From Escherichia phage AV109, in the sequence record OR352939.1: a DNA stretch of 64,000 bases. One strand, given 5' to 3'. Below, one piece after another: positions 40,240-48,786 of this stretch. Made by a program: the position numbers and the translations under genes. A model generated the notes under the pieces. It was not told where the DNA came from. It worked only from the letters and a program-made list of their open reading frames with translations, and did not search any database. Every line of letters starts with the position of its first letter. Within the stretch, counting starts at the first letter, position 1.

Positions 40240-41373
<1,134 letters not shown>

Positions 41374-41421: not shown

Positions 41422-41832
41422 CTACTTTTTCTTATGTTGGATATTCCAAGGCGGGTTGAACTTTTTGATAAAAAGTGGTTCTTCAAGGTCCATTGTTGCG
41501 ATGGTCATTGAACCAAGTTCGTTGGTGACTGAAAGGTCAAAACATTGGCGGGCCCAGAATTCAACCTTTTTGCCTTGCATTAAGGCATCCAAAATCATAA
41601 GTGATTTTCTTGAATCTGAAGTCTGGTCTTTTCGATTTATGGCTGTTCGATAATAGTTAATGCGTTTCTTTAAATTCTTGGTTTTACCAATATACACAAG
41701 TTCGTCATCTATAGCAATAGCATATATAACATTTTTCTTATTAGGGGCATCAATGGTTTTAATTGTTGCATCTTCTAATAGCTCCAATTCTATATATTTA
41801 ATAAAGGAATATTCGGCGGCAATATCTTTCAT
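41422..41832 (-). CDS. denA: endonuclease II (GIY-YIG-like)
   Basis: 136 aa, same length and position as T4 DenA; VIYAIAIDDELVYIGKTKNLKKR motif. Confidence 0.85.
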   Translation of the reverse strand: MKDIAAEYSFIKYIELELLEDATIKTIDAPNKKNVIYAIAIDDELVYIGKTKNLKKRINYYRTAINRKDQTSDSRKSLMILDALMQGKKVEFWARQCFDLSVTNELGSMTIATMDLEEPLFIKKFNPPWNIQHKKK

Positions 41833-41840
41833 AATAAAGT

Positions 41841-41854
41841 GGGACCGAAGTCCC
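41841..41854 (-). terminator. stem-loop GGGAC-CGAA-GTCCC between nrdB and denA
   Basis: 5-bp GC stem; weak U-tract. Confidence 0.3.
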
Positions 41855-41858
41855 GTCC

Positions 41859-42361
41859 TTAGAAATATTTTTTGTATGAATTGATTACATTTTGGTCTAC
41901 ATCATTATCAATTTGTGCGACAAGATAAGAACTGATTTCAACTTCCTGAGGAGCTGCTTGAACTAAATCAGAGTTCAGATATTCACGAATCCAAGGATAA
42001 GGATGTTTGGTCGGAGCATCAGTAATTGGACACGGCAAACCACACTGTTTCATACGAGACACAGTCAAGTAATCAACAAAAGCACACATACTCTGTGTAT
42101 TGATACCTGGACATGTACCGTCTTTAAAGAGGTGTGCAGCCCATTCCTTCTCTTGACTATTTACTTCCATAAAAATGTCAACTGCTTCTTGTTCACATTC
42201 TTTAGCAATTTGAACCCACTCATCACCATCAGTACCGGATTGAAGTTGACGGATAATGTACTGAGTACCCTTGAGATGGAGTTGTTCGTCACGAGCAATG
42301 AACTTCATAATCTTTGCATTGCCTTCCATAATTTCCATATTCTTATGGAAATTAAATGTAC
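41859..42361 (-). CDS. nrdB: ribonucleotide reductase small subunit NrdB, exon 2
   Basis: continues the NrdB sequence (..MEGNAKI..) after the intron; 3' splice site inferred after ..CGAACAUAACG, approximate. Confidence 0.85.
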
Positions 42362-42953
42362 CGTTATGTTCGATTGAGCTCGCTAATTCTCAACCCGTTC
42401 TCTTATGAACTGCTGCATATTACTATGCAGACCAGACTATATCACAATCCCGGAGGGATTCTCCCCATTTCGAGTCGCTTGACCCTACGTCCGAAGACTA
42501 GTCGTTGAACCTTGCTTTGCAATTGTCGCCGTGCCATCGTTTATATGTCGATGGTGATAAATCTTTCTTTTCACAATATGGACAATTCAATTGAATTCTA
42601 TTTGGATTTAATTTGCATCTGTCATTATGTTTTAGATAAAACCCAGGACCTTTACCAATGTGACCGCAGAAATCACATGTGATTTCTTTTTGTGCAGGAT
42701 GGGTTCCGTTCTTAACCATTTCTAATGTTTTTGCTGATGTTCTTCCATCAGAATCTTTAGGTATAGGCCCGTTAGCATCCATCCAAATTTTTCTATAATT
42801 CAATTGTGCATCCTCTTAAAAGTATAATCATATTTATTTTATAATATACTAATTAAAGGTGCAAGCAAAACCTTGGCTGCTAGTTTTCCTATAAAGGACT
42901 TTCCAGCAATTAAAGGAGTTTTCGATAAACGTTACCGTTTAAAGGCGCATTTT
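42362..42953 (-). mobile_element. group I intron in nrdB (about 592 nt) with degenerate homing-endonuclease ORF
   Basis: NrdB reading frame interrupted by an in-frame stop right after ..YVSFA; intron core shares conserved segments with the td intron; splice sites inferred. Confidence 0.8.
42498..42803 (-). CDS. intron-encoded ORF, probable degenerate HNH homing endonuclease (I-TevIII-like remnant)
   Basis: 101 aa; N-terminal WMDANGPIPKD resembles HNH endonuclease starts but lacks an intact HNH motif; Cys-rich Zn-finger-like C-terminus. Confidence 0.55.
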   Translation of the reverse strand: MNYRKIWMDANGPIPKDSDGRTSAKTLEMVKNGTHPAQKEITCDFCGHIGKGPGFYLKHNDRCKLNPNRIQLNCPYCEKKDLSPSTYKRWHGDNCKARFND

Positions 42954-43629
42954 ACGCAAAAGATACATAAAAACGAATAGCTTCCAATGCATTGATGACA
43001 TGCAAACAAAGATAAAGAGATTTCATTAGGTCTCGTTTAGCTTCGGTCTCTTGTTTAATAGCTCGGTTTAAACGAAGGTCGGCATCAGGAGATTCTTTAG
43101 CTTGTTCTACAAATTCTTTAGCATTTTCCCAATTACGAGTCTTGACTAGAACATCATCATAATATTTACCTATTGATTCAGCTCGTTTCATGATTGCTTC
43201 GTCTAATACAATCTCATCAAATACTTTGGATGGATCGGTATAAAGATTTCGCATAATATGAGTATACGAACGAGAGTGAATAGTTTCACTGAATGTCCAT
43301 GTTGCAACCCACGTATCTAATGAAGGGTCGGAAAGCAGTGCCATAAGTACCGCAGATGGGGCCCTGCCTTGGATAGAATCTAATAATGATTGATACTTAA
43401 GGTTGTTTGTAAAGATGTCCTGTTGGAACTGAGGAAGCTTATTGAACTGGGCCGAATCCAGCATCAGGTTTACTTCTTCTGGTCGCCAGAAAAACGACAA
43501 TTGCTTTTCAATAAGTTCTTCAAAAACTTTATGTCGCTGAATATCATAACGTGCGAGGCCAAGACCAGAACCAAAGAACATTGGTTCATTCAAAACATCG
43601 ACTTGTTGTGTGTTAAAAACTGTACTCAT
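42954..43629 (-). CDS. nrdB: ribonucleotide reductase small subunit NrdB, exon 1
   Basis: 225 codons of NrdB-like sequence ending ..RFYVSFA before the intron. Confidence 0.9.
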
Positions 43630-43684
43630 TATATTTTCTCACTTAGTTATTAACTCATCCATGAGTAAATTATAATCAAAAGTC

Positions 43685-45949
43685 TTAAAGCTTACAAGCA
43701 GAACAATCTTCAGCTTTAGGTGTTTCTAATTCATAGTCATCTGTACCTGACCCATCACGAGTGTTATGATAGTAGAGGTTTTTTCCGCCAAAGTACCAGA
43801 AGTAAAGCAGATCGTCAAGCATTACTGACATTGGCACTTTACCTTTCTCAAATACTGCAGGGTCATAGTAAGTATTAGCAGAAGCAGATTGGCACACCCA
43901 TTTCAACATGATAGCAACTTGGGTCAAATAAGGTTTATTACCTTTCTTAGCAAGTTTCCACGCGTAGTCGTAAAGACTCATGTTATGTTCTATATTAGGA
44001 ACAACCTGTCGGAAGTTGCCTTCTTTAGATTCTTTAATACTTACAGGTCCACGAGGTGGTTCTATACCATTTGTGCTATTTGAGACTTGACTGCTTGACT
44101 CACAAGGCATGAGTGCAGACAACGTTGAGTTACGAATTCCATGTTCTTTGAGTTCAGCTCGAAGTTCTTCCCAGTCACAGACATAGTTCGGGGCTGCGAT
44201 TTGGTCAATCTTTTTATTGTACCAGTCGATAGGTAATTCGCCTCTAGACCATTTAGTGTCTGAATAATACTCACAAGGTCCTTTTTCTTTGGCGAGTTTG
44301 ATTGATGCTTTGATAAGGCCATATTGCAATCTCTCGAACAATTCATGGGTCAAATCGTTAGCGTCTTCATATGAAGCAAAGTTAGAAGCTAACCATGCAG
44401 CATAGTTCGTCACACCAACACCGAGATTTCGACGCTTTTTAGCTTTTAAAGCTTCTGGAACCGGATAATCTTGATAGTCTAACAGGTTATCAAGTGCACG
44501 TACTTGTACTTCAGCAAGTTCATTAATTTTATCTTGGTCTTGCCAATCAAATTTATCTAATACAAAAGCAGATAATGTGCATAAACCAATTTCAGCATCA
44601 GGACCATTCACATCATTAGTTGGAATAGCGATTTCACAACATAAGTTACTCTGACGAATTGGAGCTTTTTCACGAATAAACGGAGTGTAGTTATTCGTGT
44701 TATCAACAAACTGTGGATAAATTCGAGCAGTGCCAGAACGTTCAGTCATGAACAATTCAAAGAGTTCTAGTGCTTTGATTCTTTTCTTTCTGATTGTTGG
44801 GTCTTTTTCAGCTTTCTCATAAAGCTCACGGAATTTATCTTGATCTTCAAAGAACGAGTAGTATAGTTCACCTGACATTTCGTGAGGGCTAAATAAAGTA
44901 ATATAATCATTTTTACCAAGGCGTTCCATCATAAGGTCATTAATCTGAATTCCGTAGTCCATATGTCGAATACGGTTTTCATCCACGCCTTTGTTATTTT
45001 TCAGAACTAATAGGTTCTCTACTTCTAAGTGCCACATCGGATAATACGCTGTAGCAGCACCACCACGAATACCACCTTGAGAACAAGATTTTACTGCAGT
45101 TTGGAAATGTTTCCAGAATGGAATAACACCCGTATGTCGGACTTCACCCATACCGATCTTAGAACCTTCTGCACGAAGCATACCAACGTTGATACCGATA
45201 CCAGCTCGTTTAGAAATATATTCAATAATTGATGCTGAAGTTTTGTTAATAGATTTTAACGAATCACCGGCTTCAATAACTACACAACTAGAGAACTGGC
45301 GAGTCGGAGTGCGAGCACCTGCCATAATTGGAGTAGGCAATGAAACTTGATGAGTAGAAACGGCATCATAAAAACGAATAATATGTTTCAAACGGTCATG
45401 AGTTTCGTCTTGATGTAAGGCCATACCAATAGCCATGATAGCAAACTGTGGAGTTTCATAAATCTTCCCAGTTGTTTTATCTTTAACCAAGTATTTTTCT
45501 TTAAGCTGCATAGCACCAGCATAAGTCAGGTCAAAGTCTCGTTCATGTTTAATCTGTGAATCGAGATAAATGATTTCTTCTGCTGAATATTTAGACAACA
45601 ACTCAGGGTCATATTTGCCTTCATTAACACAGTAAGAAATATGGTCGATAAAAGCAGGCGGTTCAAACTGCCCATATACATCTTTACGAAGTGCAAACAT
45701 TAGCCCTTTGGCGGCGACATACTGATAATCGGGTTCTTCGACAGAAATCAAGTTAGCTGCAACTTTAATACAAATCTTCTGAATATCTTTGGTGCTCATC
45801 CCATCAACCAGATGAGTCTTAATTTCTTCATACAATTCGTATGGGTCGATTTGTGTTCCTTCACACTGCCAAGTTAATACTTGAATAATTTTCTGTGCAT
45901 CAAAATTTTGGGATACACCTGAATTTTTCACTACTTTAAAATTATACAT
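43685..45949 (-). CDS. nrdA: ribonucleotide reductase large subunit NrdA
   Basis: 754 aa, same length as T4 NrdA; near-identical to recalled T4 sequence over long stretches. Confidence 0.97.
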   Translation of the reverse strand: MYNFKVVKNSGVSQNFDAQKIIQVLTWQCEGTQIDPYELYEEIKTHLVDGMSTKDIQKICIKVAANLISVEEPDYQYVAAKGLMFALRKDVYGQFEPPAFIDHISYCVNEGKYDPELLSKYSAEEIIYLDSQIKHERDFDLTYAGAMQLKEKYLVKDKTTGKIYETPQFAIMAIGMALHQDETHDRLKHIIRFYDAVSTHQVSLPTPIMAGARTPTRQFSSCVVIEAGDSLKSINKTSASIIEYISKRAGIGINVGMLRAEGSKIGMGEVRHTGVIPFWKHFQTAVKSCSQGGIRGGAATAYYPMWHLEVENLLVLKNNKGVDENRIRHMDYGIQINDLMMERLGKNDYITLFSPHEMSGELYYSFFEDQDKFRELYEKAEKDPTIRKKRIKALELFELFMTERSGTARIYPQFVDNTNNYTPFIREKAPIRQSNLCCEIAIPTNDVNGPDAEIGLCTLSAFVLDKFDWQDQDKINELAEVQVRALDNLLDYQDYPVPEALKAKKRRNLGVGVTNYAAWLASNFASYEDANDLTHELFERLQYGLIKASIKLAKEKGPCEYYSDTKWSRGELPIDWYNKKIDQIAAPNYVCDWEELRAELKEHGIRNSTLSALMPCESSSQVSNSTNGIEPPRGPVSIKESKEGNFRQVVPNIEHNMSLYDYAWKLAKKGNKPYLTQVAIMLKWVCQSASANTYYDPAVFEKGKVPMSVMLDDLLYFWYFGGKNLYYHNTRDGSGTDDYELETPKAEDCSACKL

Positions 45950-46577
45950 AATAATTCCATGTTGGATAATTTGATGATTTTAGACGGCGTCTAACCGTTT
46001 GGGTGCTCATAGATAAAATTATTGACGCTTCATTTAATGTATCATATATTACGTCGTTTATAATTACTTTCTTTGCAAATGGATTCTTAGCTCCTATCAT
46101 AGCGTTAGAAATAGCTTGCTTAGTTGATTCTTTTAATGGGACTCCTTTAGAAATTTTTGTTTTAATTTTTATATTGTATTGTCCGCGTTTTTTACCTAAT
46201 AAAGAATTTCGTATCTTTTCTTTAGTCTCTTCAGATTTAACATGTCCTAGTTTGGAACGAGATATTTTATCTTTTGTTTTTTGGTCTAATTTTCGCCCTT
46301 TAAGCAAATCAACCATTTTTGCTCTAGCCCATCCAAATTCTTTATTATTTCTAGAACTCATTAAATTAACCGCGGTTGCTAAACCTAAATTGTTCGGATA
46401 TATTTTTAATAAAAGAAGATGAGCCAAATAATGTTCTGAATATGTTAATTTAACTAGATTGTATGACTCATTGGTGCCACCTAAACATTTTGGGATTATA
46501 TGATGCCATTCACCATCGATATCTTCAAAATTTCTTTCTTTATTTACTAAGTTTTTATATATTTTTAAATAATCCAT
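45942..46577 (-). CDS. free-standing HNH homing endonuclease with NUMOD-like repeats
   Basis: HNH motif EWHHIIPK...NLVKLTYSEHYLAH; repeated ETKEKIR/STKQAIS motifs; track start 46589 is a GTG, ATG at 46577; overlaps nrdA start by 8 nt. Confidence 0.8.
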   Translation of the reverse strand: MDYLKIYKNLVNKERNFEDIDGEWHHIIPKCLGGTNESYNLVKLTYSEHYLAHLLLLKIYPNNLGLATAVNLMSSRNNKEFGWARAKMVDLLKGRKLDQKTKDKISRSKLGHVKSEETKEKIRNSLLGKKRGQYNIKIKTKISKGVPLKESTKQAISNAMIGAKNPFAKKVIINDVIYDTLNEASIILSMSTQTVRRRLKSSNYPTWNYYV

Positions 46578-46653
46578 AGTATAATCCACTTTGTAGTATC
46601 AACGGGATAGTATTTATCCCGTTAATTTTATTATACACTTTTAAACTGAAGCG

Positions 46654-46909: not shown

Positions 46910-47221
46910 TTATACCGCCATTTTAGCTTTGATAGCTGGATGTGATTCGTAATTTTTAAGAACGAAATCAGAATGTGTCATCGTTCCGGTAACCCAGTCC
47001 ATTTGGATTTTTGTAGGCCAATTCTCAAAATTACTAGGCCAATTAATTTCAAGAGAACATAACTCTTTAGGTTCACGACGAAGAACTTCTTTGCATTGTT
47101 CTACATGATTGCTGTAGATATGCGTGTTGCCGCCTGAGAACACTAAATCACCTGGGATAAGGTTACACATCTTCGCTACAATATGTGTCAAGGCAGCGTA
47201 CGAGGCGATGTTGAACGGTAG
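46910..47221 (-). CDS. td: thymidylate synthase, exon 2
   Basis: LPFNIASYAAL.. continues the ThyA sequence; 3' splice site ..AUAAUG|CUA as in T4 td. Confidence 0.92.
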   Translation of the reverse strand, partial: LPFNIASYAALTHIVAKMCNLIPGDLVFSGGNTHIYSNHVEQCKEVLRREPKELCSLEINWPSNFENWPTKIQMDWVTGTMTHSDFVLKNYESHPAIKAKMAV

Positions 47222-48237
47222 CATTATGTTCAGATAAGGTCGTTAATCTTATCCCGGAATTATATCCAGCTGCATGTCACCATGCAGAGCAGACTATATC
47301 TCCAACTTGTTAAAGCAAGTTGTCTATCGTTTCGAGTCACTTGACCCTACTCCCTAAAGGGATAGTCGTTAGGCATTTATGTAGAACCAATTCCACTTAT
47401 CAGATTTTACACGGTAAGTAACTAATCCTGATGAAATTTCAAAATGTCTAGCCGCATCGGCTGCACATTCAAAAATAATCCCATCGCATGAAATCTTTTT
47501 GATGTTAGCTGGCTTTTTGCCTTTCATCTTTTCAGATAGTTTAGTTTTAGTTTTTTCTGAATGTTTGTGATTAAAGAACGGGTTATTTTCACCTGAACGT
47601 TTTCGGCACTTTCCACAAGTATCGGCCGAAGATGGTATGCGAACACCGCATTTACAAAACTTGTGGTTTTCTGGATTCCATCGGCCATTTTTACTTCCGT
47701 GTTTACCATAAAGAGCTTTCCGACCATCAGGACCAAGCTTAAGCATCTTAGCTTTAACAGTTTCAGCTCGTTTCTTAGCAATTTCTTCTTTTAATGGATG
47801 ATTTGAAAGCACATCGCCAAAAGACGCATCAGCAATATTATATCCATTAATTTTAGAATTTAGCTCTTTAATCCAAAAATTTTCTCGTTCAATAATCAAA
47901 TCTTTCTCATATGGAATTTCTTCCAGTATAGAGCATTCAAAAACATTACCATGTTTATTAAAAGACCTTTGAAATTTTATAGAAGAGTGAACACCGTTTT
48001 CAAGGTCTTTAAAATGTCTCTTCCATCTTTTCTCAAAATCTTTAGCACTTCCAACATACACTTTACCGTTTAAAGTGTTTTTAATCTGATAAATTCCGCT
48101 TTTCATAAACACCTCTTTTTATATAGAAGTATTTATTAAAGGGTAGTCCTACAATTTAGCACGGGATTGTCTACTAGAGAGGTCCCCCGTTTAGATAGAT
48201 TACAAGTATAAGTCACCTTATACCTAGGCCTAAATTA
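47222..48237 (-). mobile_element. group I intron in td (1016 nt) carrying I-TevI
   Basis: 5' end UAAUUUAGGCCUAGGUAUAAGGUGACUUAUACUUGUAAUCUAUCUAAACGGGG matches the recalled T4 td intron; length 1016 as in T4. Confidence 0.92.
47369..48106 (-). CDS. I-TevI: GIY-YIG homing endonuclease I-TevI (intron-encoded)
   Basis: 245 aa from the ATG at 48106 (track starts at an upstream GTG); near-identical to recalled T4 I-TevI. Confidence 0.93.
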   Translation of the reverse strand: MKSGIYQIKNTLNGKVYVGSAKDFEKRWKRHFKDLENGVHSSIKFQRSFNKHGNVFECSILEEIPYEKDLIIERENFWIKELNSKINGYNIADASFGDVLSNHPLKEEIAKKRAETVKAKMLKLGPDGRKALYGKHGSKNGRWNPENHKFCKCGVRIPSSADTCGKCRKRSGENNPFFNHKHSEKTKTKLSEKMKGKKPANIKKISCDGIIFECAADAARHFEISSGLVTYRVKSDKWNWFYINA

Positions 48238-48786
48238 ACCTAAGAAAACATCTACACTGCGTTGATACCATTGTAAATCAAGATGTCCATTACGCACATT
48301 AAATTGATAGAACATATGACAAGGAGGAAGAGCCATTTGATTTATTTCAGCCGGATTCCAGGCAGAAACAATTTGACGACGATCAGTTGGTAATTTTTTA
48401 ATACGGTCGATTGTTTCAACTAATTGGTCTACACCACCAAAATCACGCCATTGCTTACCATAAATAGGACCAAGTTCGCCGCTATGATATCCAAGGTCTT
48501 TTGCCTGATTTTCATAGTTGTCGTCCCAAATAGTTTTACCTTGAATAAGACTACCATGAGTACGAATACGCAAATCATTAACATTTGTAGAGCCAGACAT
48601 GAACCATAATAGCTCAGCAATACAAGCTTTCCATGCAAGCTTCTTGGTTGTTACTGCAGGAAATCCTTTAGTCAGATCCCATCGCAATTTAGTTCCGAAC
48701 AGGGCAATAGTGCCGGTACCTGTACGGTCGTCTGTTTCGTAGCCATTTTCTAGGATATCATTAATCAGGTATTGGTATTGTTTCAT
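48238..48786 (-). CDS. td: thymidylate synthase, exon 1
   Basis: 183 codons ending ..QRSVDVFLG immediately before the intron UAA. Confidence 0.93.

Follow-up and report, generated by a model that had tools for sequence, protein, structure and literature searches.

How does Escherichia phage AV109 obtain an intact NrdB protein from a gene whose reading frame is broken? In the stretch of this phage analysed here (64,000 nucleotides (nt) of sequence record OR352939.1; 'the window'), the nrdB frame opens with an ATG at 43629 on the minus strand and halts at a TAA (42954-42952) directly past the residues ...RFYVSFA. It picks up again 592 nt downstream, where exon 2 runs from 42361 to 41859. A preliminary description of the locus had reported the stop and a resumption about 590 nt on, and explained both by a group I intron that carries a degenerate homing-endonuclease gene. 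The break is real, and the range 41859-43629 is the whole of the split gene. We find that the interrupting element is almost certainly a group I self-splicing intron of the T4/RB3 nrdB type (subgroup IA2) with an in-frame endonuclease-deletion allele of its own. The element is already known, and current understanding is unchanged by these findings; what is new is confined to this distinct allele.

Joining the nrdB exons

The gene is divided as follows:

42954..43629, minus strand: nrdB exon 1, 676 nt, from the list of open reading frames (ORFs); its last base, U, is the first base of a split Cys codon
42362..42953, minus strand: group I (IA2-type) nrdB intron, 592 nt, assigned by identity to T4 and RB9, Rfam family RF00028 and pair counts
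41859..42361, minus strand: nrdB exon 2, 503 nt including the stop codon, beginning GU ACA...

Joined, the exons (676 + 503 nt) give a coding sequence (CDS) of 1179 nt that encodes 392 amino acids with zero internal stops. The bases that meet at the junction, U and GU, form UGU, the Cys codon whose restoration the preliminary description had proposed. The spliced NrdB matches the Pfam family Ribonuc_red_sm (E=4.7e-38), and its residues 3-388 align with the sequences of E. coli R2 crystal structures (E=8e-127) without a gap at the junction. This junction falls within a helix, with the counterparts of E. coli E204 and E238/H241, which we take to be iron ligands, on either side. In the intron-less Mosigvirus ESCO47, nrdB is uninterrupted, exactly 1179 nt long, and gapless in alignment to the joined exons, with 85.8% nucleotide identity and 360 of 393 protein positions identical (92%). 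Across the junction, a 35-residue ESCO47 peptide that includes VSFACTFNF is identical to the spliced NrdB.

Are the splice sites placed correctly? They read U/AAAAUGCG...AUAACG/GUACA, with slashes marking the boundaries of the intron. In the T4 record X04140 the CDS is joined at the homologous bases (exon 1, 537-1200; intron, 1201-1798; exon 2, 1799-2301), and this join translates cleanly into 388 amino acids. Because the T4 join, the intron-less ESCO47 gene and the NrdB/R2 alignments all agree, the junctions, offered at first as tentative, can be accepted as right. T4 and RB9 show the same arrangement at this site, as do more than 100 other phage records, and it is therefore not the product of chance.

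Over 41800-43700 the window matches Escherichia phage AV114 (OR352944.1; Straboviridae, Tevenvirinae, Mosigvirus) at 100% identity; AV115 and AV116 are likewise identical, and AV118 is 98.6% identical. On the minus strand the genes follow the order nrdA (45949..43685), nrdB (43629..41859), denA (41832..41422) and RNA ligase 1 (41364..40240), the same as in T4.

The ribozyme core and the case for splicing

Do the 592 nt between the exons encode a ribozyme? The claim of a group I intron is borne out by 97.6% identity to the T4 intron, which has the same site and the same 5' junction, and by the covariance model RF00028 (Intron_gpI). Run with E-value thresholds, this model is the sole family match at the locus: 42413..42650 (minus strand), 35.9 bits, with E=2.4e-7 in a 0.9-kb search and 1.7e-5 window-wide. 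The 3' part of the alignment is convincing. It runs through GUUCAACGACUA, P3', P8, GAUAUAGUCU and P9, and the 3' core is aligned to the Rfam consensus GUUCAaAGACUA...GAUAUAGUCU. The placing of the 5' half (P1-P6) inside the ORF is wrong and was set aside. On a natural ORF-less allele (CJY920, 309 nt) the same model scores 71.7 bits with all of P1-P9 aligned, which puts the true 5' half at 42953..42865.

The structure that we draw consists of the following parts, where intron position n is window coordinate 42954-n:

42945..42957, minus strand: P1, exon GCGU (42957..42954; positions -4 to -1) with intron GCGC (6-9)
42865..42941, minus strand: 5' ribozyme core (P2 to the 5' strand of P6a), from the Rfam alignment of the ORF-less allele
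intron 13-18 / 23-28: P2, GUAA loop
intron 36-41 / 488-493: P3
intron 46-51 / 71-76: P4
intron 56-59 / 64-67: P5
intron 77-79 / 443-445: P6
intron 83-89 / 434-440: P6a
42521..42864 (intron 90-433), minus strand: L6a loop, holding most of the endonuclease ORF and the signals for its expression; missing in CJY920 and SP21535, which keep the rest
42374..42520, minus strand: 3' ribozyme core (P6a'/P6' at intron 434-445 to P9.2), from the Rfam alignment
intron 451-455 / 515-519: P7
intron 456-458 / 463-465: P7.1, UUCG loop
intron 469-473 / 478-482: P7.2
intron 494-499 / 503-508: P8
intron 524-530 / 535-541: P9, GUAA loop
intron 544-547 / 554-557: P9.1
intron 561-565 / 576-580: P9.2
42362 (intron 592), minus strand: omega-G, the terminal intron G of ...AUAACG/GUACA; at the same position in T4 and RB9 and invariant in seven alleles

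All of P3-P8 can be drawn, including the P3/P7 pseudoknot. We counted pairs in seven alleles aligned after trimming of the ORF (the window, T4, RB9, FL18, CJY920, NP4 and SG1). All 71 proposed pairs are standard in all seven (496 of 496 cells) and none is broken; when the 3' partners are slid by 1-3 columns as a control, only 33-44% pair. Compensatory double changes, four in all, occur in two pairs of P2 and in a single pair each of P5 and P9 (in P9, A-U to G-C); CJY920 carries changes of this kind in P2 and P5. Four further pairs, some of them in P6a and P9, carry single changes compatible with G·U. At the 5' splice site, the U(-1)·G6 wobble of P1 is invariant in the seven alleles.

Two hairpins, GUC-UUCG-GAC and GGGUC-AAGC-GACUC, sit between P7 and P3', and the hairpins P9.1 and P9.2 are present as well. 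The combination of P7.1/P7.2 with P9.1/P9.2 is what we take to define subgroup IA2 (T4 td, nrdB and nrdD; Twort). Many unrelated phages have group I introns that match the 3' core at 70-85% identity. Judged by sequence, the intron is structurally a group I intron of IA2 type.

Two other foldings were tried and discarded. In a first register for P6a (U86-A442 ..., with a bulged A), T4's G439A would break a pair. The minimum-free-energy fold of an ORF-deleted construct is a different global structure (-76.9 versus -64.3 kcal/mol for a model lacking P7) and was not used; such a mismatch is expected because the P3/P7 pseudoknot and tertiary contacts lie outside the folding model.

Several points weigh against reading the locus as a splicing group I intron. 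A scan of the whole 64-kb window at Rfam gathering thresholds gives zero matches. The seven alleles in the pair count average 97% identity, and most pairs never vary. The structure was drawn from the counted sequences themselves, so that the count is partly circular; likewise, the P6a register adopted (G83-C440 ... C89-G434) fits the T4 and SG1 variants but was chosen with these variants in view and is not independent of them. Finally, we infer splicing in this phage from near-identity to the T4 and RB3 introns, which have been shown to splice.

How damaging is the negative Rfam scan? RF00028 has a gathering score of 50, and in control scans the nrdB introns of T4 (35.7 bits) and RB9 (33.9 bits) also fall below it. 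The low score arises because the 344-nt insertion in L6a, which holds the ORF, forces the 5' half to misalign. Given the sub-threshold scores of T4 and RB9 and the 71.7 bits of CJY920, the ribozyme is not missing, and after the E-value scans and these three controls we dropped the gathering-score failure as a refutation. The covariance-model check suggested in the preliminary description thus gives a divided answer: the match is significant by E-value and misses the gathering score, as does T4's proven intron. The gathering threshold misses phage group I introns that bear ORFs, the textbook T4 example included; since the T4 intron scores below it, a negative scan at this threshold is not evidence of absence.

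The nrdB introns of T4 and RB3 are described as self-splicing (PMC2988022, PMC1865063). Each core base of the window is found in the T4 or the RB9 state, and so there is no ground in the sequence to expect a splicing defect.

Splicing would proceed as follows. With nrdB transcribed as a single pre-mRNA, the intron RNA would fold into the P1-P9.2 core and loop the 344-nt endonuclease segment out of P6a. Exogenous guanosine bound at P7 would attack the phosphodiester after the exon U, which is held in the U·G pair of P1. The freed exon 1 would then attack after the terminal G of the intron and join ...GCGU to GUACA..., giving a ligated junction of ...TTTGCGT/GTACATTT.... Ligation would restore the Cys codon and with it the full-length NrdB of 392 amino acids.

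Could the intron be present and yet dead, leaving nrdB a pseudogene and the phage dependent on the ribonucleotide reductase of its host? A homing endonuclease that has already decayed, placing the element past its mobile phase, would suit this idea, as would the Rfam score below threshold. But T4's intron scores equally low, all 71 core pairs are intact in a core made up of T4 or RB9 states, and both exons are free of stops and frameshifts and yield a product 92% identical in protein to its intron-less homologue. We regard a dead intron as highly improbable.

We give almost no credence to the proposal that nrdB is truly split, with two separately translated polypeptides and no splicing. The records of AV114, JM17 and FL18 do annotate two CDSs and no intron, and an ATG-initiated ORF (42338..41859) covers most of exon 2. 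These annotations, however, come from automatic gene callers, which do not model introns, and their exon-2 CDS starts at an internal Met, dropping CTFNFHKN. The break lies inside a codon, within an R2 helix between the presumed iron ligands; the element that interrupts the gene is nearly identical to the T4 intron (97.6%) and occupies the same site; and intron-less relatives have one contiguous nrdB of exactly the summed length. Also rejected were an intein, since the insert is out of frame and opens with a stop codon; translational bypassing or frameshifting, since a gap of 592 nt is too great and the sequence contains a ribozyme core; and an assembly artefact, since the identical allele occurs in four independent genomes.

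The I-TevIII remnant and its deletion

What is left of the endonuclease? Three features of the intron bear on this question:

42498..42803, minus strand: truncated I-TevIII ORF, 101 amino acids, with a TTG start and a UAG stop that overlaps P7
42807..42863, minus strand: hairpin sequestering the Shine-Dalgarno sequence of the ORF; RNAfold -15.1 kcal/mol versus -14.9 in T4 and RB9
42737..42744, minus strand: deletion junction, a single copy of AAGAACAT, from alignments to JM17

The ORF starts LNYRKIWMDANGPIPKD, and a TTG start is also annotated for RB9 I-TevIII; a Shine-Dalgarno sequence, GAGGA (42815..42811), lies 7 nt upstream. Alignment shows that the ORF is made of residues 1-22 joined directly to residues 191-269 of the 269-residue RB9 enzyme, with DEIHHKDGNRENNDLDNL... 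deleted. The missing segment is exactly 504 nt, in frame, and takes out residues 23-190: the HNH catalytic motif in its entirety and the greater part of the DNA-binding linker. Pfam HNH_3 matches residues 4-48 of RB9 I-TevIII (E=1.9e-11) and gives no match on the intron ORF of the window. The earlier view of the 101-residue ORF as a decayed gene of I-TevIII type without an intact HNH motif is thereby upheld. Profile matches agree in register: residues 21-101 fall on positions 189-269 of PHROG 12324 ('intron-like DNA endonuclease', 269 positions), and PHROG 27406 (97 positions, consistent with the 97-residue T4 URF) also matches.

In I-TevIII, the HNH motif lies within the first 50 residues, as described by Robbins et al. 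in 2007, and the zinc-finger motif is CX2CX12-13HX3C, represented in RB3 by C211/C214 and C242/C245 (PMC1865063). Both fingers are intact in the window ORF: C43-x2-C46-x12-H59-x3-C63 and C74-x2-C77-x13-H91-x3-C95. Residues 166-269 form the minimal DNA-binding fragment, and the shorter fragment 194-269 (194C) is a protease-stable, zinc-containing dimer that gives no shift of homing-site DNA (PMC1865063). Only 191-269 of the minimal DNA-binding region is retained here. By its predicted sequence, the window protein is essentially 194C with an N-terminal tag of 22 residues, and it can reasonably be predicted to have lost both cleavage and specific binding. With no HNH motif and an incomplete DNA-binding region, the predicted product is a remnant of I-TevIII and not a functional member, and it is probably inert.

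Some features of the ORF argue against inertness. The start codon, Shine-Dalgarno sequence and regulatory hairpin of the remnant are all in place and its reading frame is preserved, and the six differences between it and the corresponding JM17 sequence comprise two amino-acid changes and four synonymous ones. Some residual function is therefore possible. The in-frame deletion may even have been kept by virtue of a 101-residue protein, with both zinc fingers and the dimerisation interface, that acts on its own, although we think this very unlikely. Such a protein could serve as a dominant-negative partner that poisons full-length I-TevIII dimers of co-infecting phages, or as a small nucleic-acid-binding regulator. 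If this were true, repeated independent losses, across different phage lineages, of the nuclease part of I-TevIII alone would reflect selection and not neutral erosion.

The regulation of the intron ORF by hairpin and late promoter has been described (PMC2988022). The late-promoter motif TATAAATA of T4 and RB9 reads TATAAAATAAATA in both the window and JM17 (42838-42853; intron 101-116), a change made up of a 5-nt insertion and a T-to-A substitution. In JM17, a full-length I-TevIII lies behind the same altered sequence, TATAAAATAAATA.

How did the 504 nt disappear? In the full-length JM17 allele AAGAACAT occurs twice, 504 nt apart. Of 119 phage records that include this stretch of the intron, just AV114, AV115, AV116 and AV118 align over the junction without a break; nearly all the other records listed contain the extra 504 nt. 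T4, Manna and FL18 have a different deletion, in which ...GAUGG is joined to AAGA(A/C)CAUAAGAAAAGAACA... and 491 nt are removed. This T4-type deletion shifts the frame, so that I-TevIII runs into UAA after ...DGRT; the annotated 97-residue URF of T4 starts at an out-of-frame AUG. I-TevIII in the window would have been disabled by deletion of the 504 nt between the two copies of AAGAACAT, leaving the C-terminal double zinc-finger/dimerisation module. The better reading of the alignments is that this deletion was an event separate from T4's, in a JM17-like ancestor, because the polymorphisms that flank it are those of the JM17/RB9 haplotype and not of T4.

The truncation might instead be the T4 deletion, inherited or transferred and then trimmed by another 13 nt: taking UAAGAAAAGAACA out of the T4 junction AAGAACAUAAGAAAAGAACAUCAGC would give the window junction. 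But the states of the window on both sides of the junction are those of JM17/RB9: it shares the 5-nt insertion and an AAU codon 2 with JM17 and not with T4, and it shares UGCGGU, GCAAAGCAAGG, the A-U pair in P9 and AUAACG with RB9 and JM17 and not with T4. JM17, moreover, is a phage of the same genus whose locus shows 97.9% identity and whose full-length ORF has its AAGAACAT repeats at exactly the distance deleted. We consider descent from the T4 deletion unlikely and favour independent loss.

Across phages, I-TevIII has been lost from the nrdB intron on four or more separate occasions, and in each case short direct repeats bound the deletion. The types are the frameshifting 491-nt deletion of T4 (introns of 592-599 nt); the in-frame 504-nt deletion of AV114; the SG1 type, with a 420-nt intron; and loss of the whole ORF between ACAATTG repeats (CJY920, 309 nt; SP21535, 300 nt). 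All of these (T4, Manna, FL18, SG1, CJY920, SP21535 and the window) retain an intact ribozyme core. FL18 is a Mosigvirus, as is the window phage, but carries the T4-type deletion allele, with two more deletions, one of 1 nt (AAAAG-ACA) and one in the promoter region; transfer between genera, or recombination, thus extends to defunct alleles. The locus is a further data point for the cycle of invasion, decay and loss of homing endonucleases.

Mobility, annotation and known nrdB introns

The intron is 97.6-98.1% identical to those of T4 and RB9, while the exons are about 80-83% identical. The 31 bases of exon 1 that adjoin the intron (42954-42984) are shared without change by T4 and RB9; in the intron-less ESCO47, positions -2, -11 and -14 differ from exon 1 of the window. 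Together, the identity gap and the 31-nt tract suggest horizontal spread by homing with short co-conversion.

Can the intron still move? It should no longer home by its own enzyme, to judge from the predicted protein, because I-TevIII has been disabled by the 504-nt deletion. The nrdB intron of T4, whose own endonuclease is defunct, is mobilised in trans by MobE, the product of a gene lying between nrdA and nrdB (PMC2790892), and RB9, like T4, has mobE at this position. Between nrdA (which ends at 43685) and nrdB (which starts at 43629) the window has no mobE but a spacer of 55 nt (43630-43684), so that a MobE-type trans route is unavailable from this position.

Other endonuclease ORFs lie nearby. 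Directly upstream of nrdA is a free-standing HNH-type homing-endonuclease ORF of 215 amino acids (45942-46589, minus strand; EWHHIIPKCLGG...; PHROG 655, E=7e-46), whose end overlaps the nrdA start codon. The td gene for thymidylate synthase (46910-48786, minus strand) is also split, into an exon-1 ORF (48786..48235, ...QRSVDVFLG) and an exon-2 ORF (47224..46910, LPFNIASYAALTH...). Between them lies a GIY-YIG ORF of 247 amino acids (48112..47369) that is I-TevI-like and has matches to PHROG homing endonucleases. A second sub-threshold RF00028 match falls at td (47270..47500, 36.2 bits, E=1.4e-5). The td interruption is presumably a T4-type td intron with an apparently full-length endonuclease.

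Public records present the nrdB locus differently. Those of AV114 (OR352944.1), JM17 and FL18, PP400779.1, PP400780.1 and others give nrdB as two 'beta subunit' CDSs with no intron feature. The truncated intron ORF is labelled 'homing endonuclease', and in the AV114 record it begins at an internal ATG (42499-42783 in the coordinates of that record). These records should carry nrdB as one joined CDS interrupted by a group I intron, with the intron ORF given as a truncated, non-functional I-TevIII.

How does the element compare with nrdB introns already known? The alignments that the preliminary description called for, here to the nrdB introns of T4 and RB9 and to I-TevIII of RB9, give intron identities of 97.6% (T4) and 98.1% (RB9) and the same insertion site. 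In T4 (X04140), as here, the intron follows the first base of the Cys codon in ...RFYVSFAC..., the 5' junction is U/AAAAUGCGCC, and 30 exon nt and the first 90 intron nt are identical to the window. The T4 intron has the same P1-P9.2 core, P7.1/P7.2 included, with an ORF in the P6a loop whose 3' end overlaps P6a'-P7, and there too an internal loss of about 0.5 kb has inactivated the endonuclease. It is 598 nt long, whereas that of the window is 592 nt; its deletion removes 491 nt and shifts the frame, whereas ours removes 504 nt in frame; and its 3' end reads AUACG/GUAC where the window, RB9 and JM17 read AUAACG/GUAC. T4 belongs to the genus Tequatrovirus and not to Mosigvirus, its exons are only ~80% identical to those of the window, and it has mobE beside nrdB, which the window phage lacks there.

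RB9, which represents the RB3/RB9 type, is 98.1% identical over the shared 587 nt and has the same junctions, AUAACG 3' end and P5 loop. Its intron is 1091 nt long and encodes an intact I-TevIII of 269 residues. The parts of this ORF that the window retains are near-identical, and residues 23-190 are gone. I-TevIII of the RB3/RB9 type is an active HNH enzyme that cuts both DNA strands, acting as a dimer (PMC1865063).

Among relatives that keep the ORF at full length, JM17, also a Mosigvirus, is the closest, with 97.9% identity across the locus. The 5-nt insertion of the promoter region is common to both, and its exon 1 is identical to that of the window for the 169 nt next to the intron. The JM17 intron is 1096 nt long with an I-TevIII ORF of 810 nt; the window allele is this intron minus 504 nt, plus a few point changes. 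At the other extreme, the ORF-less alleles of CJY920 (309 nt) and SP21535 (300 nt) have the same ribozyme core and the same insertion site as the window.

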